A stretch of 64,000 nt of DNA from a virus: the IMG/VR virus record IMGVR_UViG_3300008116_000018; one strand, 5' to 3'. The position numbers and the translations under genes were made by a program. Below, one piece after another: positions 10,542 through 19,133 of this stretch. Numbering within the stretch: the first letter of the stretch is position 1; each line of letters opens with the position of its first letter. A model generated the notes under the pieces. That model was not told the DNA's origin. It ran no database searches and was given only the letters and a program-made list of their open reading frames with translations.

Positions 10542-11264
10542 CTACCTTTCAATGCTCACATGATGATTAATAACTTTTCTGCTAGAGAACGGAATGTCCT
10601 TTATCAGCGATTCAAACTCCATTGTACTATACCGACTCTTAAAAGTCAAATTCTTATCGGTAAACAAAAACACAAGCAACTCATTAGAATGACTTTTGCC
10701 ATTTAGTAATTCTGCCTGCATCTTGTATCGCTCAGATGGAATTTGAACCTCTTTGTTAATCTCCAGCACTTTGTCAGTATAGACTAGTTGATACTGTTTG
10801 TCAACTAGATTGAAAACGCCAACGGTACCGGTAATCCCAGAGACTGCACGGAAAACAAATCGTTCACCTTGCTTGAAGTTATTCTTGCCTTCAACGTGAA
10901 ATTTTATTGTATTGGTAATCTTCTCTACATCGGCTACAATATCAACTTCACACACTTGCCGATTTCTGTCAGGATAAACTTGTTTGTCTTTCTTGATGAT
11001 TGTTTTAATCTCACCACTCACTTCGGTGTAAAGAGTAGAAAGCATAGTACACTTCTCATCTTTACAATTTTCGTTTTGTGCAGATTCAATCAATTCACCA
11101 ACAAAATTTGCAATTGCATTTTGCTTTGCTTTTTCTTCAGCAAGTCTACACGCAACATTCTCAGCAGTATCAGGACCGAATGAATATTCACCAGTACCCG
11201 ACACACGTTCAGCATGTGCAAGACTACTCACACAAAGCAAAGTCATAATAAAGAGTTTACGCAA
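10542..11264 (-). CDS. secreted/periplasmic protein (FlgT-N-like start)
   Basis: signal peptide ending AHA; A-x-x-x-A-x-x-x-A-x-x-NA helix. Confidence 0.55.
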   Translation of the reverse strand: MRKLFIMTLLCVSSLAHAERVSGTGEYSFGPDTAENVACRLAEEKAKQNAIANFVGELIESAQNENCKDEKCTMLSTLYTEVSGEIKTIIKKDKQVYPDRNRQVCEVDIVADVEKITNTIKFHVEGKNNFKQGERFVFRAVSGITGTVGVFNLVDKQYQLVYTDKVLEINKEVQIPSERYKMQAELLNGKSHSNELLVFLFTDKNLTFKSRYSTMEFESLIKDIPFSSRKVINHHVSIER

Positions 11265-11727
11265 CTTTCAATCCTTTCAGTCTGTCTGCCGCATATGATG
11301 CCGCAAACGCATTTGGTTTAACCATAGGCACAACATTACATGTGCCTTTGATGTACCCAATTGCTTCGTTAATAACACAAGAACTACCATGCATTTCGTT
11401 TGGATTAATATCCAAATGAACTTCAACATCTCGCCCCTCCAATACATCTGCAAGTTTAATATACAACTCAGAAAGTTTATACACTTCACTCATCAGACGA
11501 TACCTTGGACGATTCACTTTTTGGTCGTAGTCACGTTCACGTTGTACTTCACCAAACAATTTGCATCCATTATTTCCATTAATGTGAACTACGATAGCAA
11601 GAACATAGTCTGCGTACCACAATTCATTTACTCTCATTCTTTCAGAATCACAACCAATATAGATTTTAGTCTCCGGTGTTTGTGCTTCTATGAATTGCCT
11701 CACCTCTTCTAAATCTAATCTACGCAC
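11257..11727 (-). CDS. RNase H-like YkuK family protein (GTG start)
   Basis: YIGCDS, EVHLDIN, KPNAFAASYAADR; AAGGAG SD before GTG at 11727. Confidence 0.85.
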   Translation of the reverse strand: MRRLDLEEVRQFIEAQTPETKIYIGCDSERMRVNELWYADYVLAIVVHINGNNGCKLFGEVQRERDYDQKVNRPRYRLMSEVYKLSELYIKLADVLEGRDVEVHLDINPNEMHGSSCVINEAIGYIKGTCNVVPMVKPNAFAASYAADRLKGLKVA

Positions 11728-11750
11728 AGCGTACTCCTTAATAAAAACAA

Positions 11751-11825
11751 TGGTGGGCTGACTAGGAATTGAACCTAGACTCAATGAATTATGAGTTCAC
11801 TGCTTTACCATTAAGCTATCAGCCC
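11751..11825 (-). tRNA. tRNA-Ile2/Met(CAT)
   Basis: cloverleaf, loop CTCATAA, encoded CCA; overlaps the last 15 nt of hldD. Confidence 0.9.
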
Positions 11826-12584
11826 GTTTACTTTACTCATGTCTGCACGTGTATATTCTTGATAACTGTTTTTCAAATTATCTGGCATTGGAATTTCTAC
11901 AATATCAGCTTTATGCTTATCTGCAATTTCCTCAGCAACATCTAAAAAACTTTTTGTCTCACCTGTTCCAATGTTAAAAACACCAGACTCTTTACAATCT
12001 AAGAACTTCAAATGATATTGTATCACACTTTCTACAGGAATGAAATCCCTGAAATATTTGTCACTACCATGGAAGACTTTAATCTTGCCAGTTTCTTTAG
12101 CTTGTTTGGCAAACTGAGTTTGTGGACTTGCTTGATTGCCCTTATGCTCTTCACCAGAACCATACACATTAAAGTATCTAAAACCTTGTACAATTGATCC
12201 GCATGGATGTTTACGCACATGACGTTCAAACAAATACTTCGACCATGCATATGGTGTTCTTGGGTCTAATGGCGACTCTTCGGTAAACTCTTGATTCAAA
12301 CCATATACACTCGCTGAACTTGAGTATTGAAAATTAACACCAAACATCTTACATGCATCATACAGTTGAATGCTGAAATCTAAATTTTGTGTTAAAACTT
12401 TTTCAATGTCTTTCTCTGTTGTTGCACTGATTGCGCCAATGTGAATAACCCAATCTTGTTCCATAACACTTGGTAATTGTTTATCGCCCCATTCATACGT
12501 ATCAACAGAATGTCCTGCATTCTCTAATGCAGTAAGCATATGACTACCGATGAAACCTTTGTGACCCGTCAGAAGAATTTTCAT
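11811..12584 (-). CDS. hldD: ADP-L-glycero-D-manno-heptose 6-epimerase-like SDR
   Basis: TGHKGFIG, SSASVYG, YAWSK, GFRYFNVYG, RDFI, YQEYTRAD. Confidence 0.85.
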   Translation of the reverse strand: MKILLTGHKGFIGSHMLTALENAGHSVDTYEWGDKQLPSVMEQDWVIHIGAISATTEKDIEKVLTQNLDFSIQLYDACKMFGVNFQYSSSASVYGLNQEFTEESPLDPRTPYAWSKYLFERHVRKHPCGSIVQGFRYFNVYGSGEEHKGNQASPQTQFAKQAKETGKIKVFHGSDKYFRDFIPVESVIQYHLKFLDCKESGVFNIGTGETKSFLDVAEEIADKHKADIVEIPMPDNLKNSYQEYTRADMSKVNGLIA

Positions 12585-12937
12585 TTCTGAGAATCTCCAG
12601 GAAGAACTCTATAATTGTCTTCAACGGAATCTGGAGTAGACACTTCAATGATTGTGCCTTCTTCTAAGCAAATCACTTGATGTGGTTCTAGTGGCTCATT
12701 GCGCCAAACGTCACCCTCATTCAGAATTGTGTTACGCATACTAGCATCTTTAGTCTGAATGTACTTAACTTCAAACTTGCCATTCAAGACATACCATGTT
12801 TCATCTTTGTGTGCATGAAAGTGCATACTGAATTTTGCGCCTGTGTTAAACTTCAACAGCTTACCGCAATACTTATCATTGGTTGCAAAAATGAATTCGT
12901 GCCCCCAACCTTTTTCAACAAAGCCTTCTAATCTCAT
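12581..12937 (-). CDS. cupin sugar-isomerase-like protein
   Basis: KGWGHE, SMHFH...KDETWYV, IIEVSTP...DNYR. Confidence 0.8.
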   Translation of the reverse strand: MRLEGFVEKGWGHEFIFATNDKYCGKLLKFNTGAKFSMHFHAHKDETWYVLNGKFEVKYIQTKDASMRNTILNEGDVWRNEPLEPHQVICLEEGTIIEVSTPDSVEDNYRVLPGDSQK

Positions 12938-13725
12938 TGTATCTCCTTTAGTGTGGGTGCATAATTACCCACATGCTGTACTGTAATTGACGATGCTTTA
13001 TTTGCAAATTTGATTGCATCATCAATGCTATTCGTCACAAGATATTGATAAGCTAATGCGGCTAAGAATGTATCGCCTGCACCACACACATCAAGAACAT
13101 CAACTTTTTTTGTTGGGTAATTTGTATTGACATGTTCACTACGTAGCATTGCGCCATCGGCACCCAATGTTACAATCATATCCCATGCATATGACTCAGC
13201 CGCTTCAAATTCTTTTTCGTTGATTTTAACAAAAGCACCATTGAATGCTTCTAAGTTTCTTTTCTTCGTATCGATAAAAACTGGTCCATTAAAATCGTGA
13301 ATCAGATTTTGGATATGCTCATAAGTTAAAAAGCCTTTGTTGTAATCAGATATAACAACAGCATCATAACCTTCGGTATCTACAATTCCATTCCACGGCT
13401 CTATCTTTGGCTCTTCATCTATTCTGACGATTTGATATCCAGACTTTTCGTCTATGATTCTAGTCTTTGTGATTCTTGGTTCGCCATTGACACCTGCCGC
13501 TTGATTTGAAATTATCGTTGTGTCACAGCCGAGTTTGTACAGATTGCTATGGACATTTCGTGCCATACCAAGTCTGGTTTCTTTTCGTGTTAGTTTGATT
13601 ACGGGAATTGGTGCTTCTGGACTCAATCTGTCGATTGTTCCATATTGATAAACATCTATGCAAGAATCACCGAGTAGCAATATCTTGAATTTTGTTTGTG
13701 GTTGAGTACTGTTCAAGTCTGTCAT
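12934..13725 (-). CDS. hldE: heptose-7-phosphate kinase (HldE domain I, PfkB family)
   Basis: RLSPEAPIPV, SDYNKG, DVCGAGDTF. Confidence 0.88.
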   Translation of the reverse strand: MTDLNSTQPQTKFKILLLGDSCIDVYQYGTIDRLSPEAPIPVIKLTRKETRLGMARNVHSNLYKLGCDTTIISNQAAGVNGEPRITKTRIIDEKSGYQIVRIDEEPKIEPWNGIVDTEGYDAVVISDYNKGFLTYEHIQNLIHDFNGPVFIDTKKRNLEAFNGAFVKINEKEFEAAESYAWDMIVTLGADGAMLRSEHVNTNYPTKKVDVLDVCGAGDTFLAALAYQYLVTNSIDDAIKFANKASSITVQHVGNYAPTLKEIQ

Positions 13726-14068
13726 AAAATTTAATTTCTTTACAGAATTCGGCACCAATGATCGGTGTGTTTCTGTAGTCACTTCCTTTAACCATTATAT
13801 CAGGCTTATAGTCACGAATCAAGTTTATCAATTCTTCATCGGTATCAAACACATCTACTCTATCTACGTATTTAAGTGCGAATAATAATGATGTACGTTC
13901 ATACTCGGTATTGATTGGTCTATCTGCACCTTTTAATTCTTTGATGCGTCTGTCGCTATCAGTAAGCACGTACACGTATGCGCTAGGATAAGATTTTGCA
14001 TACTGCAATAATCGCAAGTGTCCTAGATGTACAATATCAAATGATCCGTTTACTATAATTTTCATCAT
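13667..14068 (-). CDS. heptose-1-phosphate adenylyltransferase (HldE domain II)
   Basis: NGSFDIVHLGH, LKGADRPIN, VKGSDY, YSTT. Confidence 0.88.
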   Translation of the reverse strand: MMKIIVNGSFDIVHLGHLRLLQYAKSYPSAYVYVLTDSDRRIKELKGADRPINTEYERTSLLFALKYVDRVDVFDTDEELINLIRDYKPDIMVKGSDYRNTPIIGAEFCKEIKFYDRLEQYSTTNKIQDIATR

Positions 14069-14079
14069 ACATTTATATA

Positions 14080-14166
14080 TGGTGCGAGTAGCCGGACTCG
14101 AACCGGCACACCTTTTAAAGCGAGAGATTTTAAGTCTCTTGTGTCTACCAATTTCACCATACTCGC
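14080..14166 (-). tRNA. tRNA-Leu(TAA)
   Basis: cloverleaf with long variable arm, CCA. Confidence 0.95.
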
Positions 14167-14170
14167 TAAC

Positions 14171-14245
14171 TGGTCCGGCGTGAGGGAATCGAACCCCCAT
14201 AATGACTTTAGAAGAATCATGTCCTATCCGTTGAACGAACGCCAG
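14171..14245 (-). tRNA. tRNA-Arg(TCT)
   Basis: loop CTTCTAA, CCA. Confidence 0.93.
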
Positions 14246-14264
14246 AATTAATTTCTATACACGT

Positions 14265-14293
14265 AGTATAGTCTACATTTTCTATCTTGTCAA
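14265..14293 (-). promoter_or_regulatory. sigma70 promoter inside tRNA array
   Basis: TTGACA-17-TATACT. Confidence 0.75.
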
Positions 14294-14294
14294 G

Positions 14295-14368
14295 TGGAGC
14301 GGGGTAAGAGAATCGAACTCTCAGCATTAGCTTGGAAGGCTAAGGTATTACCACTATACGAACCCCGC
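14295..14368 (-). tRNA. tRNA-Gly(TCC)
   Basis: loop CTTCCAA, U73, CCA. Confidence 0.95.
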
Positions 14369-14375
14369 ATTTTTT

Positions 14376-14449
14376 TGGCTACCCACCAGGGACTCGAACC
14401 CCGACCAACGGTTTTGGAGACCGTGATGCTGCCATTACACCAGTGAGTA
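14376..14449 (-). tRNA. tRNA-Trp(CCA)
   Basis: loop CTCCAAA, CCA. Confidence 0.93.
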
Positions 14450-14450
14450 A

Positions 14451-14753
14451 TTATTTGTTTAATTGTCTGAACTTAACTTCTTTGGTTTCTTCATTGTACT
14501 TATGAATTGCATCATACTCATCATCATACAATCCTAATTCTTCATTAGCAGTATGTAACTTGTCTAACGCATCTTGGCGTTTCTTATTGAATGCTTCATA
14601 GCCTTCTTTGGTTCCCAATTCATATCCTTTATCGGAATGAATTTCTTCAGCCGATTTGATATTCTTTTTAAAGATGGCATCAAATCGATTTGCGTATTCT
14701 TCCTGACTTACGCTAAATGGACGTGGTGCGCTTCCTTTTCCACCATCACTCAT
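14451..14753 (-). CDS. hypothetical protein
   Basis: MSDGGKGSAPRPFSV N-terminus common in T4-like phages. Confidence 0.7.
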   Translation of the reverse strand: MSDGGKGSAPRPFSVSQEEYANRFDAIFKKNIKSAEEIHSDKGYELGTKEGYEAFNKKRQDALDKLHTANEELGLYDDEYDAIHKYNEETKEVKFRQLNK

Positions 14754-15196
14754 AAAATCACCCTATGATATTCGTAGTTAACTGTATCGTCATTCTCTCT
14801 AAAAACAACTGCACCATTACGCATATGAAAACGTTTAGCCATTTCAGTCTTAGGACTCAGCGTAACGTATCTTTGAATCTCTGGTTTGTTTTCTTTGATG
14901 TGTTTAACAGCATCAAAAATTAATGTGCGACCTGCACCTGGAGCATAACTCCAAATGGTATAAAATATTGCAACAATCGGTTCAGATGAAATCTGAAACA
15001 ATTCAGTTTCTTTTGTTGGAATTTCTGTTTGATAACTTACGCATGTGATTGCTTTCACTTGTTCATTTTCGTCACGTAACACAAAGATATCTTTGTTGTC
15101 ACCAACTCTGTCAACATGTGGAATATGAGGACGCACAGGGTCTTCACTTAACATACTCATTACACTATCAGTAAACGATTTTATTAGATATAACAT
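14750..15196 (-). CDS. GNAT-fold protein resembling the malonyl-CoA decarboxylase catalytic domain
   Basis: AIFYTIW...GAGRTLI...YVTLSP...AKRFHMRNGA parallels MCD motifs AVFYSI/FVTLSP/RFHLGNGA. Confidence 0.6.
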   Translation of the reverse strand: MLYLIKSFTDSVMSMLSEDPVRPHIPHVDRVGDNKDIFVLRDENEQVKAITCVSYQTEIPTKETELFQISSEPIVAIFYTIWSYAPGAGRTLIFDAVKHIKENKPEIQRYVTLSPKTEMAKRFHMRNGAVVFRENDDTVNYEYHRVIL

Positions 15197-15217
15197 TCTA
15201 TACTTTCATTTCTTATA

Positions 15218-15292
15218 TGGTGGAGAATAAGAGATTCGAACTCTTGACTATTGCTTGCAAAGCAATTGCGTTCCCAATTACGCCAATCCCCC
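15218..15292 (-). tRNA. tRNA-Ala(TGC)
   Basis: loop TTTGCAA, G3:U70, CCA. Confidence 0.93.
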
Positions 15293-15303
15293 ATTATTAT
15301 ATT

Positions 15304-15380
<77 letters not shown>

Positions 15381-15390
15381 ATATTTATAC

Positions 15391-15464
15391 TGGTGCCCCA
15401 TGACAGAATCGAACTGCCGTAACCTGATTACAAAACAGGTGTAATGCCATTATACTAATAGGGC
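15391..15464 (-). tRNA. tRNA-Thr(TGT)
   Basis: loop TTTGTAA, CCA. Confidence 0.92.
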
Positions 15465-15470
15465 TAAAAC

Positions 15471-16214
15471 TTAAATTATCTTCTCCATTATATTCTTTGC
15501 TAAGTTATCCACATCGGCTCTTGTTGTGCCTCCGAGAATAACAATAGCATACTGTTCACCATTCTTATGTACGATCATCACAAGACACTTACCAGCCGCA
15601 TTCGTTGTGCCAGTTTTAGATACTTCAATGATATCATATTTGTTCATCAACTTCACGTTAGTGTTATTGACTGGAATGTGTTTCTCTCTATTCTTCTTAT
15701 CTACGACTTTCAAATCGTATCTACTCAATGCAGATATATCACGTATCTTATCATGCCTGTACGCATCTGTCAACATGATAACTAAATCTTTTGCGGTACT
15801 AATGTTCTTTGCACTCAGACCAGATACATCATCAAATTTTGTATCGTACATTTGAAGCATAATTGCACGTTTATTCATTTGATAAACTGTCCACAATTTA
15901 CCACCCATGCTTTCTGCTAATGCTTCTGCGGCTCTGTTGTCACTTTTGACTAACATTAAATTCAACAATTCTTCTCTAGTGAATTTCTTGTGTGAATAGA
16001 ACATTCCTTTATATGGAACTTTCTCATCCAATGAAACTCCACTCTCAAGTAACACCAATGCAGTCATCAGTTTCGTAATGCTTGCTATTGGTCTCATTTT
16101 ATCAATTTCAGCATCAACAATCGGATATTGTTTTGTGATGTTGTATGCGTAAACTGTAATAGCATTAGCACTCAAACAAGTCAATAGGATTAGAGATAAG
16201 ATTATTTTTTTCAT
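15471..16214 (-). CDS. D-alanyl-D-alanine peptidase, family S11 (PBP7-like)
   Basis: signal peptide; ASITKLMT (SxxK), SDN (SxN), KTG. Confidence 0.92.
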   Translation of the reverse strand: MKKIILSLILLTCLSANAITVYAYNITKQYPIVDAEIDKMRPIASITKLMTALVLLESGVSLDEKVPYKGMFYSHKKFTREELLNLMLVKSDNRAAEALAESMGGKLWTVYQMNKRAIMLQMYDTKFDDVSGLSAKNISTAKDLVIMLTDAYRHDKIRDISALSRYDLKVVDKKNREKHIPVNNTNVKLMNKYDIIEVSKTGTTNAAGKCLVMIVHKNGEQYAIVILGGTTRADVDNLAKNIMEKII

Positions 16215-16228
16215 ATTCTTCTTTGTAA

Positions 16229-16307
16229 TGGCTCCGAGTAAGAGGATCGAACTCTTCTAACCAGTGATTAACAGTCACGCCCATGCACCTTGCTCGGGTT
16301 TCTCGGA
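16229..16307 (-). tRNA. tRNA-Asn(GTT), atypical
   Basis: loop CTGTTAA, G73, CCA; A7:A66 mismatch, A8, enlarged D-loop. Confidence 0.8.
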
Positions 16308-16314
16308 ATAAAAT

Positions 16315-16388
16315 TGGAAGCGGGTGTTGGATTCGAACCAACGATGCACCTGGCTTATGAGACCGGTGTGGTGACCGCCCTACCCGCT
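16315..16388 (-). tRNA. atypical tRNA-like RNA with CAT anticodon
   Basis: perfect acceptor and T arms, CCA; reduced D-arm; bulged anticodon stem. Confidence 0.75.
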
Positions 16389-16401
16389 ATATTATATATC
16401 T

Positions 16402-16478
16402 TGGAGTGAGTGACAGGACTCGAACCTGCATAGAACGGATTTGCAATCCGTAGCCTAACCATTCAGCGGCACACTCAC
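16402..16478 (-). tRNA. tRNA-Cys(GCA)
   Basis: loop TTGCAAA, U73, CCA. Confidence 0.92.
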
Positions 16479-16487
16479 ATAAAAACT

Positions 16488-16562
16488 TGGCGATGCGTGG
16501 GAGAATCGAACTCCCGTAAGCGGATAGACAATCCGCAGTAATAACCTCTATACGAACGCACC
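16488..16562 (-). tRNA. tRNA-Asp(GTC)
   Basis: loop TTGTCTA, G73, CCA. Confidence 0.92.
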
Positions 16563-16571
16563 TAAAAAACT

Positions 16572-16656
16572 TGGTGGAGACAGTAAGATTCGAACCTACT
16601 CACCCGAAAGAACAGATTTACAGTCTGCCGCAACTCTCCAACTTTGCCGTATCTCC
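16572..16656 (-). tRNA. tRNA-Tyr(GTA)
   Basis: loop CTGTAAA, long variable arm, CCA. Confidence 0.93.
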
Positions 16657-16671
16657 AAAATACTAAACTCA

Positions 16672-16747
16672 TGGTACACGATAGGGGAATCGAACCCCTC
16701 TTCCCGCCGTGAAAGGGCGGTGTCCTAAACCGATAGACGAATCGTGC
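16672..16747 (-). tRNA. tRNA-Glu(TTC)
   Basis: loop CTTTCAC, CCA. Confidence 0.95.
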
Positions 16748-16770
16748 ATACTTTTTTAATCTATGAATAG

Positions 16771-16799
16771 AGTATAACACTCTAAACATTTTCTGTCAA
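16771..16799 (-). promoter_or_regulatory. sigma70 promoter inside tRNA array
   Basis: TTGACA-17-TATACT with extended -10 TG. Confidence 0.78.
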
Positions 16800-16808
16800 C
16801 AACATTTT

Positions 16809-16896
16809 TGGCAGAGAGTATGAGATTCGAACTCATGCACCGCTTTCGCAATGACAGTTTAGCAAACTGCTGGTTTAACCACTCACCCAACTCTCT
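16809..16896 (-). tRNA. tRNA-Ser(GCT)
   Basis: loop TTGCTAA, long variable arm, G73. Confidence 0.93.
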
Positions 16897-16903
16897 ATAA
16901 TTT

Positions 16904-16993
16904 TGGCGGAAGCGGTGAGATTCGAACTCACGGAACATTTCTGTTCGACAGTTTTCAAGACTGTTGCCATAAACCAGACTCGACCACACTTCC
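16904..16993 (-). tRNA. tRNA-Ser(TGA)
   Basis: loop CTTGAAA, long variable arm. Confidence 0.95.
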
Positions 16994-16999
16994 ATAACT

Positions 17000-17074
17000 T
17001 GGTGCGCCCTGAGAGAATCGAACTCCCACTCGTAGGTTCGTAGCCTACTGTAATATCCATTTTACTAAAGGCGC
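17000..17074 (-). tRNA. tRNA-Arg(ACG)
   Basis: loop CTACGAA, CCA. Confidence 0.95.
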
Positions 17075-17085
17075 ATAAAAACATT

Positions 17086-17162
17086 TGGTGCCCTCTCTCA
17101 GATTCGAACTGAGACTTTACGGCTTCTAAGACCGTCCTCTCTACCAATTGGAGTAAGAGGGC
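17086..17162 (-). tRNA. tRNA-Leu(TAG), short variable loop
   Basis: loop CTTAGAA; 5-nt variable region AAAGT. Confidence 0.9.
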
Positions 17163-17165
17163 ACT

Positions 17166-17239
17166 TGGTTCCCAGAGAAAGAATTGAACTTTCGATAATC
17201 GCTTATCAAGCGACCGTTATACCATTTAACTATCCGGGA
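17166..17239 (-). tRNA. tRNA-Ile(GAT)
   Basis: loop TTGATAA, CCA. Confidence 0.9.
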
Positions 17240-17248
17240 CTATCTTGT

Positions 17249-17323
17249 TGGTACCTTGTGACGGGATTGAACCGCCGACCTTCTCCTTGTAAGGGAGACA
17301 CTCTACCGCTGAGTTAACAAGGC
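17249..17323 (-). tRNA. tRNA-Val(TAC)
   Basis: loop CTTACAA, CCA. Confidence 0.95.
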
Positions 17324-17332
17324 AATTTTCTT

Positions 17333-17408
17333 TGGGGTGACCTATGGGATTTGAACCCATCCTATCGGAATCACAATCCGAGGTGCTGACCGCTAACACT
17401 AAGGTCAC
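17333..17408 (-). tRNA. tRNA-His(GTG)
   Basis: loop TTGTGAT, C73; genomic -1 base is T. Confidence 0.93.
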
Positions 17409-17420
17409 ACCAAAGAAAAC

Positions 17421-17495
17421 TGGTAGGGGCACCGAGAATCGAACTCGGATTTACTGGTTAAAAGCCAGCTACTCTAGCCGTTGAGTTATACCCCC
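17421..17495 (-). tRNA. tRNA-Lys(TTT)
   Basis: loop CTTTTAA, CCA. Confidence 0.94.
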
Positions 17496-17499
17496 AAAT

Positions 17500-17574
17500 T
17501 GGTGGTGACAGTTGGATTTGAACCAACGACCGATTGCGTATGAAGCAATTGCACTACCGCTGTGCTATGTCACC
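17500..17574 (-). tRNA. tRNA-Met(CAT)
   Basis: loop TTCATAC, CCA. Confidence 0.9.
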
Positions 17575-17577
17575 ATT

Positions 17578-17651
17578 TGGCAGGGGATACAAGAATCGAA
17601 CTTGTGCCAACGGAATCAAAATCCGTTGTGCTACCATTACACTAATCCCCA
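17578..17651 (-). tRNA. tRNA-Gln(TTG)
   Basis: loop TTTTGAT, G73, U1:U72 mismatch. Confidence 0.93.
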
Positions 17652-17718
17652 TCATAAAAAATATGGATGCAAATTGTTAAAGAACGTTTTGTTGAACCTC
17701 TATCGACTCAACATATGA

Positions 17719-17780
17719 AGTATAACACAATCGGAAAGACTGTCAACAACTATTTTCATAGATGTTGTTTTCATACAACA
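17719..17780 (-). promoter_or_regulatory. palindrome-associated sigma70 promoter at head of tRNA array
   Basis: TTGACA-16-TATACT; palindrome 17763-17780. Confidence 0.85.
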
Positions 17781-17781
17781 C

Positions 17782-17818
17782 AAAGAAAAACCCCCTAGAG
17801 TTTTCAGTCTCTAGGGGG
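17782..17818 (-). terminator. intrinsic terminator (attenuator)
   Basis: CCCCCTAGAG-8 nt-CTCTAGGGGG perfect 10-bp stem followed by TTTTTCTTT. Confidence 0.92.
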
Positions 17819-17870
17819 CTTGTCTTTGTATTCTCTTTGGACTTATGGTCCTCAGGTATAACAAGCCCCC
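17814..17870 (-). promoter_or_regulatory. antiterminator helix
   Basis: GGGGGCTTGT (17870-17861) is perfectly complementary to ACAAGCCCCC (17823-17814), which includes the 5 C at the terminator stem base. Confidence 0.8.
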
Positions 17871-17968
17871 ATCACTGGTGCGTGGCAATCGGATTTCTCT
17901 GAGCGAGAAATACTCTGCCACGTAATCGGCATATAATTTCTTGTTGAGAGTTTCGATATTAAATTCAT
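17852..17968 (-). CDS. putative attenuator leader peptide (38 aa, not in ORF track)
   Basis: MNLISKLSTRNYMPITWQSISRSEKSDCHAPVMGACYT*; ATG 1 nt after the mazG-like stop; 19 amino acids, 31 distinct codons. Confidence 0.75.
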   Translation of the reverse strand: MNLISKLSTRNYMPITWQSISRSEKSDCHAPVMGACYT

Positions 17969-17969
17969 T

Positions 17970-18251
17970 TTAGTTTACTGTTTCTTCGTTAAAAATATTA
18001 GACCATTTCTGGAGTTTTGCTTTCTTGTTTGCGGATGCTCTATCTACTTCATCAATGCTAATGATACCTGTTTCAATCATCAACTGAATCATACAAAATA
18101 AATCACCAACTTCTTCTGTCAATCGTTCACGATTAGATGCACCATTGTGTTCACCATCTAAACCAAATCTAAAAACTTTACTGATTGCCTGTGTCACTTC
18201 GGCACATTCTTCTTGTGCAATGAGTAAAACTTCTTTTTCAACACTATTCAT
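17970..18251 (-). CDS. MazG-like all-alpha NTP pyrophosphohydrolase
   Basis: EECAEV...SK...EEVGDL motifs. Confidence 0.85.
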   Translation of the reverse strand: MNSVEKEVLLIAQEECAEVTQAISKVFRFGLDGEHNGASNRERLTEEVGDLFCMIQLMIETGIISIDEVDRASANKKAKLQKWSNIFNEETVN

Positions 18252-18274
18252 TATCTAACCTTTTCTCAATACAT

Positions 18275-18480
18275 AAAATGCTCTGCGAATCTCGGCGGTA
18301 ATTATAGAACATCAAGATATGACGCTATCATACCCATCACACGTTCCTTCCACCCGCTCCCCGACAGATTCCGTTCTCGCATTGCCAGCGGCCTTTCGGT
18401 TTAAAGACTACCACCCGTAGCTGTCACACTACTTCTCATCCTGTGGGTCACAGTATCCAGAGACTAACCCGGAACGTTCT
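18275..18480 (-). ncRNA. candidate structured ncRNA (~205 nt)
   Basis: ORF-free, GC-richer than flanks; paired termini and at least six hairpins/helices. Confidence 0.7.
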
Positions 18481-18783
18481 TTACATATTCTGAATGAATT
18501 GCTTCACCAAGAATCGTTTCACTTCCCATGCGTTAGTCATTCGCACAGTCTTTTCTTTACTATTCAATCTGTATGTAATATATAGCCTTTTTGGAGCAGA
18601 AATTACCACAGCACCAAAAATATTTTTACTGAGTCCAAACGGTATCACATAAGCATCACCGTTGTCAAGTTTTTTCTTGGCATAACCATTAGCACCTTTG
18701 ATCTTATCAAGACCACCAAATCGAACTGTATCTAAAATTTCAACAGCCATCGATTGTCGTGGACCCATACCATCAATATACAT
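18481..18783 (-). CDS. hypothetical protein
   Basis: AAGGAA SD before MYIDGMG. Confidence 0.65.
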   Translation of the reverse strand: MYIDGMGPRQSMAVEILDTVRFGGLDKIKGANGYAKKKLDNGDAYVIPFGLSKNIFGAVVISAPKRLYITYRLNSKEKTVRMTNAWEVKRFLVKQFIQNM

Positions 18784-18896
18784 ATTGTTCCTTATGCTTT
18801 GGTTCTCTCTTACGCTTGTCTTCAACCACACGCATACGATACTTAGGGCTACGCAAGTCCTTCGCTACCATGTTACGTGGTTTTGTTTTCGACAAT

Positions 18897-19133
18897 TTAA
18901 AATTCAGGCTCTCCATAACTTCCATAATCCTCATCGGTTCCATATCCTGCTGAAGCCATAGCGGAATCAAAATCTCCGTCCATGCTTTCATTATACTCTG
19001 CATCCATAAAACTTGCAACAAAATTGTCAACCAATTCTACTGGTATATTAAGCATTGTTGCAATCGTGAATTCATTGTATCCTTGAAGATACAACTCTTC
19101 AATCTCCATAGCCAACTCGCTCATCTTACTCAT
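18897..19133 (-). CDS. small HTH-like protein with acidic tail
   Basis: TIATMLNIPVELV; SAGYGTDEDYG tail. Confidence 0.65.
   Translation of the reverse strand: MSKMSELAMEIEELYLQGYNEFTIATMLNIPVELVDNFVASFMDAEYNESMDGDFDSAMASAGYGTDEDYGSYGEPEF

Follow-up and report, generated by a model that had tools for sequence, protein, structure and literature searches.

A candidate ribosome-dependent transcription attenuator at the head of a phage tRNA array

What determines how far transcription from an upstream operon runs into a phage tRNA array? To our knowledge, the control of phage tRNA gene expression is largely unknown. Phage tRNA genes have been linked to the evasion of tRNA-targeting host defences (PMC10264068, PMC11555353). 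The window discussed here, by which we mean the whole 64,000-nucleotide stretch of DNA analysed, comes from an uncultured freshwater phage, and the element at issue lies on its minus strand and is compact (~190 nt). The reading that we favour, with moderate confidence, is that this element is a transcription attenuator that works through the ribosome and senses the general speed of decoding. By inference, it sets how far transcription of the upstream early operon extends into the tRNA genes. This function is inferred, and no data presented here demonstrate actual read-through. Literature searches for an attenuator of phage tRNA genes found no such element described.

Architecture and predicted folding of the locus

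The upstream operon begins at a sigma70-like promoter (19996-19969), and its final complete gene encodes a MazG-like protein (Table 1). A single nucleotide separates the stop codon of this gene from the AUG of a short leader ORF (TAA-A-ATG), which has no Shine-Dalgarno sequence of its own. The first-pass annotation had described this ORF, a hairpin within it, two perfectly complementary 10-nt arms and a terminator, and had regarded the antiterminator and terminator helices as mutually exclusive. All of the features it listed were located at the minus-strand positions it gave, including both segments of the hairpin stem and the full 10-bp complement. The helices do share the five C that lie in the antiterminator 3' arm and double as the base of the terminator stem. 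The extent of the terminator needed correction: the 10-bp stem with its U-tract (17790-17786) is present, and in the minimum-energy fold the hairpin can be extended to ~23 bp (17829-17780) through pairing of its A-rich 5' flank with the U-tract and the bases behind it.

Table 1. Coordinates of the features of the leader locus in the window
Feature	Coordinates	Strand	Details
MazG-like nucleotide pyrophosphohydrolase gene	17970..18251	-	93 aa; Pfam MazG E = 9.4e-06; PHROG 4856 E = 6.6e-25
Leader ORF	17852..17968	-	38 codons + TGA; conserved; indels preserve frame
Small upstream hairpin	17916..17931	-	UGCCG/UGGCA; built from invariant Met-Pro and Trp-Gln codons
Main intra-ORF hairpin	17881..17922	-	Codons 16-30; CGTGGCA 17922-17916 with TGCCACG 17887-17881; ATTTCTC 17911-17905 with GAGAAAT 17899-17893
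Antiterminator 5' arm	17861..17870	-	GGGGGCTTGT (RNA form GGGGGCUUGU); codons 33-36; ends 6 nt before the stop codon
Small hairpin right behind the leader stop codon	17839..17851	-	GGAC-CAUAA-GUCC; within the antiterminator loop
Antiterminator 3' arm	17814..17823	-	ACAAGCCCCC; exact complement of GGGGGCTTGT
Intrinsic terminator	17778..17829	-	10-bp core CCCCCTAGAG 17818-17809 with CTCTAGGGGG 17800-17791; 8-nt loop ACTGAAAA; then TTTTTCTTTGTGT
Sigma70-like promoter of the first tRNA block	17719..17746	-	TTGACA-16-TATACT
tRNA array	11751..17651	-	24 genes, 22 anticodon species; first gene tRNA-Gln 17651-17578

Several smaller structures accompany the two competing helices. The main hairpin inside the ORF is a possible RNA-polymerase pause or synchronising hairpin; its loop holds the variable codon 23 (F, S, L or I), and its 5' arm has an alternative partner in the small upstream hairpin. 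The pattern of the latter, TGCC(N6-12)TGGCA, is present across all clades of relatives, including the distant lineage L041. The hairpin behind the stop codon (17851-17839) retains its stem among relatives, and its loop differs in both length and sequence. Of the 10 bp in the terminator core, seven are G-C pairs. An internal C of the antiterminator 3' arm forms a mismatch in the extended terminator and pairs with G in the antiterminator.

The complementarity and the features listed above are not chance. A 201-nt region spanning them folds at -70.1 kcal/mol (z = -6.9), a value matched by none of 200 shuffles. The antiterminator duplex itself has an energy of -22.8 kcal/mol, and dinucleotide shuffles of the upstream 134 nt average -9.7 (sd 2.45), with none of 3000 reaching the observed strength. 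Synonymous recodings that keep the peptide, drawn from phage codon usage, reach it in only 25 of 3000 cases, which indicates that the peptide does not dictate the pairing. For transcripts stopping short of the terminator 3' arm, the minimum-energy fold consists of the antiterminator with the internal hairpin 17851-17839. With the whole stem transcribed, folds forced into the antiterminator and into the terminator differ by less than 1 kcal/mol (-53.9 versus -54.6, and -58.8 versus -58.5 kcal/mol, respectively), so the two helices are isoenergetic when the decision falls. The extended terminator prevails energetically once the polymerase has passed the entire U-tract and flank. As modelled, this course of energies is the profile expected of a kinetic switch.

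Other identities for the structure were rejected. A tRNA-like reading of the GGGGGCU...AGCCCCC helix has no tRNA match in ARAGORN or Rfam, and the enclosed 43 nt cannot form the arms. The Rfam His_leader family (RF00514) scores 28.5 against a threshold of 49 bits (E = 0.18) and has a mirror match on the opposite strand; these sub-threshold matches on both strands stem from a hairpin followed by a U-tract. An Rfam scan of 11000-19000 returned only tRNAs and the sub-threshold His_leader, with no T-box match at E <=1.

Codon content of the leader and the tRNA array

The tRNA array includes two genes, Cys-gca and Asn-gtt, that appear only under relaxed ARAGORN settings and raise the count from 22 to 24. 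All amino acids except Phe are covered. The leader of the window phage uses 19 of the 20 amino acids within 38 residues, Phe alone being absent, and most relatives use all 20 within 37-42 residues. Among equal-length windows of the phage's long ORFs, 20 types occur in 0.3% (0.003) and at least 19 types in 2% (0.02). Leu, Ser and Arg are each encoded from both of their codon families. When the codons are assigned to the phage's own anticodons, the leader calls on 21 of 22 species under strict wobble and on 22 of 22 if U34 superwobble is allowed in four-codon boxes. No stretch of equal length taken from the phage's own genes matches this census (0 of 13,132; null mean 14.3, maximum 20), and random ORFs with the base composition of the window reach it at a rate of 2.7e-4. 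The suggestion in the first-pass annotation of a leader that surveys tRNAs at large thereby gains the support of an independent statistic. The leaders of four other arrays give census P values of ~1.5e-3 or less, the census of the L041 leader is unremarkable (P = 0.02-0.2), and L131 has a full-census leader yet only 15 tRNA genes.

The one amino acid missing from the window leader is also the only one for which the array lacks a tRNA. Across relatives, the presence of Phe in the leader and of tRNA-Phe in the array agree in 12 of 14 distinct sequences, with L014/L122 and L009/L131 as exceptions. This agreement reflects about three independent events and is not significant; with two exceptions as well, it is suggestive only.

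What the switch probably reports is decoding capacity in general, since nearly every phage tRNA species is needed one or a few times along the leader. No tandem runs of regulatory codons are present. We extend this reading only tentatively, as a possibility short of a favoured view, to large phages in general: these may use "codon-census" leader attenuators, in which a test ORF that samples the whole tRNA repertoire gates a tRNA array as a general feedback, so that whatever slows decoding, anticodon nucleases and other tRNA-targeting defences among the causes, would raise the supply of tRNA. If true, this would be a new class of regulation for tRNA genes, and for the phage a counter-defence that can be induced.

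Proposed mechanism and its counterparts among known attenuators

In the proposed mechanism, ribosomes that finish the MazG-like gene would re-initiate on the leader, which, judging from the sequence and without ribosome data, may be translated only by ribosomes that have just left that gene. A ribosome in step with RNA polymerase would stand at the last codons or the stop codon as 17823-17814 emerges. Because the antiterminator 5' arm ends so close to the stop codon, a ribosome at or near the stop would cover 17870-17861; the terminator would then form, and the transcript would end at the U-tract. A ribosome that lags in the MazG-like gene, or that waits at a hungry codon within roughly the first 29 leader codons, would leave the arm free. 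The free arm would capture 17823-17814 and sequester the five C, leaving 5 bp of terminator stem, and the polymerase would enter the tRNA genes. Wherever this scheme relies on the footprint or the timing of the ribosome, it is inference. The outcome would be negative feedback on tRNA supply, and the switch would respond as well to tRNA depletion by host nucleases or starvation.

The geometry limits what can be sensed. The sensing zone covers approximately the first 29 codons, and in the window phage codons for Val, Gly and Ala occur only after it; a ribosome stalled at these would still cover the arm and favour termination. An earlier expectation that a stall for want of any tRNA would lead to read-through was therefore too strong: in this phage, the only Val, Gly and Ala codons sit among the last nine. 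The distance from arm to stop codon is 6 nt in the window, 3 nt in the 37-codon forms, 12 nt in L115 and 15 nt in L041. With generally assumed footprint sizes, the spacing suits masking by a terminating ribosome in the window and in the 37-codon forms and is marginal in L115 and L041, where such a ribosome would barely cover the arm.

Well-studied attenuators of enterobacterial amino-acid operons, such as trpL, hisL, leuL and pheL, and the multivalent thrL and ilvL, combine a translated leader ORF, an intrinsic terminator and an antiterminator that shares bases with the terminator 5' arm, and the position of the ribosome decides between them. The phage element has the same short leader ORF, terminator ahead of the regulated genes and base-sharing antiterminator, together with an upstream hairpin and possible pause. 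An attenuation logic of the trp/his/ilv type had been proposed in the first-pass annotation, and it is supported in silico by the conserved coding ORF, the complementarity in homologues and the fold energies. Unlike these attenuators, the element is phage-borne and precedes tRNA genes rather than genes for biosynthetic enzymes, its leader samples tRNA species once or a few times each instead of carrying a regulatory codon run, and the leader lacks its own ribosome-binding site and is predicted to be fed by re-initiation from the upstream gene. A further difference concerns the 1:2 helix. Two nascent folds contain a trp-like candidate (CUCAACAAG with CUUGU..UGAG), which is not stronger than in shuffles, is absent from other clades and was rejected. 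As no convincing 1:2 helix exists, untranslated RNA should read through and not super-attenuate, unlike in trp.

The pyrBI and pyrE (rph-pyrE) attenuators sense how close the ribosome is to RNA polymerase, and in pyrE the ribosome comes from an upstream gene. In both, the ribosome overlaps the terminator hairpin and blocks it physically. The proposed phage switch would likewise sense the closeness of ribosome and polymerase and, as in pyrE, would rely on a ribosome from an upstream gene. It differs in that 33 nt lie between the end of the leader stop (17852) and the first base of the stem (17818), so that any effect must pass through the antiterminator, and its polarity is the opposite, with close coupling leading to termination. 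T-boxes bind one specific uncharged tRNA directly and do not need translation; the phage element would share with these riboswitches a transcription attenuation that reports tRNA status and would differ in relying on translation. In the E. coli topAI-yjhQ transcript, the "multipurpose" uORF toiL senses stalls at different positions and many translation stresses, and it acts by unmasking a ribosome-binding site and avoiding Rho-dependent termination, with a demonstrated response to antibiotics (PMC12121999). The phage leader resembles toiL in that it is proposed to sense stalls at many positions. Unlike toiL, it is joined to an intrinsic terminator/antiterminator pair, and its proposed signal is tRNA supply.

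The logic of the trp, his, leu, thr and ilv attenuators is known, and what would be new here are the tRNA targets, the census leader, the translational coupling and the location in a phage. Such an attenuator would extend the textbook mechanism, with tRNAs as the product and, as the sensor, a leader that addresses all species in place of one repeated codon. It would provide the phage with a built-in gauge of the decoding capacity of the cell, and the element offers a simple plan on which a synthetic sensor for translation stress in general could be built.

Relatives, competing explanations and a distant lineage

DNA searches of 50,697 phage records in near and distant modes found no match to this phage. 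Relatives are abundant in IMG/VR and in JGI/ENA metagenomes, mostly from freshwater, and were gathered with the MazG-like protein, the leader peptide and a peptide profile against 1.84 billion protein representatives. The profile search of these representatives found nothing beyond the leader family; two apparent proteins of 145-162 aa are gene predictions continued past the leader TGA and were discarded. The ~27 distinct metagenomic copies fall into four subclades, namely the window type, L015/L132, L096/L115 and L114/L116/L117/L134. Gene order is constant, with the MazG-like gene followed by a leader ORF of 37-42 codons, the antiterminator/terminator and the tRNA array. In every clade the leader start overlaps or adjoins the MazG-like stop codon (TAAAATG, TAATG or ATGA). 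The terminator lies 30-40 nt past the leader stop, and an array of 15-25 tRNA genes follows directly wherever the contig extends far enough. A MazG-like gene of 62-76% identity is also present at 64 other loci; 63 of these lack both this leader and a nearby tRNA gene, and the remaining one is L041.

Comparison with related phages had been put forward as a check on three points: retention of the short ORF, antiterminator complementarity in homologues and compensatory changes in both helices. The ORF is kept in ~27 sequences of the four subclades, and complementarity is kept as well, even in L041 with its wholly different terminator. Compensation is seen in the extended terminator, which covaries and carries matched insertions, and is not seen in the antiterminator, which is invariant.

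The leader ORF behaves as coding and, in the absence of ribosome data, is presumed to be translated. Its frame survives three independent 3-nt indels (one +3 in the L009/L010 type and two different -3), and synonymous changes are found at conserved residues. Between distant clades, an identical codon is used at conserved degenerate residues at a frequency of 0.75-0.89 in the leader and 0.57-0.62 in the MazG-like gene; the higher codon identity of the leader points to a constraint at the RNA level. Nearly all invariant leader residues fall on RNA helix arms. The Met-Pro and Trp-Gln codons form the UGCC/GGCA helix, the Ser-Arg-x-Glu codons the top of the inner hairpin, the Cys-His codons the 3' arm of the main hairpin and the Gly-Ala-Cys codons the antiterminator arm. 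The outer pair of the main hairpin changes from G:C through G.U to A:U by way of synonymous third positions (ACG/CAC, ACG/CAT, ACA/CAT), and the inner stem is kept only partly in other clades.

Leader residues are conserved by position and not by composition alone, which would also fit a functional small peptide. One such explanation is a nascent-peptide switch in which W17, Q18, S21, R22, E24, H29, P31, G34-A35-C36 and T38-stop act in the exit tunnel, as in TnaC or SecM, to hold the ribosome near the stop for some ligand; alternatively, the peptide may work in trans. The C-terminal 22 residues are indeed the most conserved part of the leader, and both the stop codon and its distance to the arm are conserved in four subclades. 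Yet no known arrest motif was recognised, Pfam gave no match, and Arg or Ser can stand in place of the first Cys. The leader of L041 is homologous in its N-terminal half only and has a completely different C-terminal half, and the switch is retained. As nearly all the invariant residues coincide with helix arms, RNA can explain their conservation. We regard a peptide-based switch as very unlikely.

For the attenuator that we favour, the antiterminator offers conservation without covariation. Of 21 aligned sequences, 20 have an identical 5' arm, in which even the synonymous sites of GGG and GCT are unchanged. Nine of its pairs never vary across relatives and no pairwise covariation is seen, so the covariation test is uninformative either way. 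Invariance could be due in part to the conserved Met-Gly-Ala-Cys peptide and to the terminator's own needs. In the L015 clade two of the ten pairs, both outer, are lost without compensation, and 8 bp remain. The C of ACAAG, mismatched in the extended terminator and paired in the antiterminator, is kept in three of the four subclades. The terminator itself is more variable: its core stem is lengthened in L098/L099 by matched insertions on both sides, and the outermost pair of its extended form covaries from C:G through U.G to U:A. On the minus strand, this outermost pair exists solely in read-through RNA.

Read-through also bears on the promoters behind the terminator. Sigma70-like promoters end at 17719, 16771 and 14265, the first of them preceded by a palindrome (TGTTG-N8-CAACA, 17780-17763). 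The first-pass annotation had cautioned that these separate promoters would confine the element to added read-through. They are present, and most members of the family carry their own promoter behind the terminator; the caveat is nonetheless weaker than it appeared, as the ~75-nt promoter segment is missing in six distinct relatives (L001, L002, L005/L119, L012/L120, L104 and L115), in which ~75 nt separate the U-tract from tRNA-Gln. In L119 no further strong promoter is met until 1.1 kb into the array, and about the first ten tRNAs have no visible transcription source except read-through of the terminator. With no promoter between terminator and tRNAs, read-through matters in these six relatives.

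Functional read-through RNA, as implied by the promoter-less variants, is also what an RNA processing or stability element would require. Under that explanation read-through is constitutive, the ~23-bp hairpin (17829-17780) is an RNase III-type site that splits the mRNA from the tRNA precursor, and the upstream complement only modulates the fold. The extended helix is about two turns long, and the covarying outer pair present only in read-through RNA counts in the same direction. As a full account we find it highly improbable, since a GC-rich stem of 10 bp with UUUUUCUUU behind it makes a canonical terminator, and neither the census nor a competing arm in the last codons of a translated ORF is explained. 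Processing of this kind is compatible with an attenuator and does not exclude one.

The locus could also be an ordinary operon end, in which a terminator that is strong and possibly bidirectional closes the early operon behind a small protein gene, the tRNA block has its own promoter, and the complementarity gives a compact, nuclease-resistant mRNA 3' end or serves another purpose or none. The unit spanning the promoter at 19996-19969 and the terminator, with a new promoter at 17746-17719, has this layout. The conserved peptide positions across clades and the lack of covariation in the antiterminator agree with it. We judge this explanation unlikely, though not negligible. It leaves unexplained the tRNA-species census, the excess conservation at synonymous sites and the six variants in which no other source of transcription is visible for the first tRNAs, as well as the antiterminator that is re-created at an unrelated terminator in L041.

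The last of these observations is the clearest case in which the proposed attenuator architecture is kept and its parts are exchanged. L041 is a distant relative on a 152-kb contig, with a MazG-like protein 67% identical to that of the window. Its terminator, GCCUCAAGA-loop-UCUUGAGGC, is unrelated in sequence, and the 3' end of its ORF, AGAGGCUUUUU, is complementary to the flank and first bases of this terminator, forming an 11-bp antiterminator of -17.9 kcal/mol that is matched in 9 of 3000 shuffles. As L041 pairs its own antiterminator with an unrelated terminator, the architecture is retained and both helices are replaced. The L041 antiterminator remains the minimum-energy fold even when the terminator 3' arm has been made. 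A search of viral contigs with the L041 leader returned only L041 itself. The 94-aa database protein P0010 shares the N-terminal half of the L041 leader and continues beyond it, a point in favour of an ordinary operon end; the leader may have originated as a portion of a longer gene, or may even now be one in some phages.

Sequence elements ahead of the first tRNA gene

The stretch between the leader terminator and the tRNA array of this phage carries several features on the minus strand, listed below with those found within the array. A 17-nt motif, GTTCTTTAACAATTTGC, is conserved across all clades, regardless of whether the first tRNA is Gln or Glu and whether the tRNA promoter is present or absent. 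It occurs only once in the window, even with up to two mismatches allowed, and may serve for RNA processing or as a binding site. The 5' stem-loop that follows the predicted start of the tRNA promoter has the forms GACUGA-GAAA-UCAGUC and GAUUGA-GAAA-UCAAUC in other clades, which differ by a compensatory C:G to U:A change. The six relatives without the promoter segment lack this stem-loop along with the promoter.

Features near and within the tRNA array
Feature	Window position	Strand	Remarks
17-nt motif GTTCTTTAACAATTTGC	17669-17685	minus	9-18 nt 5' of first tRNA
5' stem-loop	17691-17712	minus	directly after predicted start of tRNA promoter; equivalents in loci L015 and L096
Palindrome TGTTG-N8-CAACA	17763-17780	minus	between terminator and -35 of tRNA promoter
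tRNA genes Cys-gca and Asn-gtt	16402-16476 and 16229-16307	minus	not called by default ARAGORN
D-alanyl-D-alanine carboxypeptidase gene	15471-16214	minus	Peptidase_S11, E = 2.8e-34; within tRNA array

Composition of the tRNA array

Counting Cys-gca, which Rfam also detects, and Asn-gtt, the array comprises 24 genes, with tRNA-Phe the sole absentee. Among near-identical phages, a tRNA-Phe(gaa) gene between tRNA-Arg(acg) and tRNA-Ser varies in presence, distinguishing the related metagenomic loci L120, L121 and L124 from the window, L119 and L122. The leaders of L121 and L122 are identical, yet the two loci differ in this gene.

Leader variants and leader-derived database proteins

Two related loci, L103 and L104, have mosaic leaders, in which an N-terminal part of the window type is joined to a 3' part of the L015/L096 type (CACACACCTGGAATGGGGGCTTGTACCTGA). 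Judged from sequence, these mosaics indicate recombination within the element; consequently, conservation counts are not fully independent. At another locus (L115:554-682), a one-base insertion 3' of the antiterminator arm alters the reading frame so that the leader ends in …GACTLRT*, with its stop codon displaced downstream by 9 nt. As this contig is short and single, the insertion may be an assembly error.

Leader sequences also surface in public protein entries. P0001 and P0002, 162 and 145 aa long, start at their N termini with the leader, and their translations read the leader TGA as Trp before continuing across the terminator into the tRNA genes; we rejected both as gene-calling artefacts. 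A third entry, P0010, is a 94-aa ORF on an ENA contig that shares its first ~40 residues with the leader type of the distant lineage L041 and differs over the remainder; it is either a longer gene of ancestral type or a form of the element that lacks the terminator.
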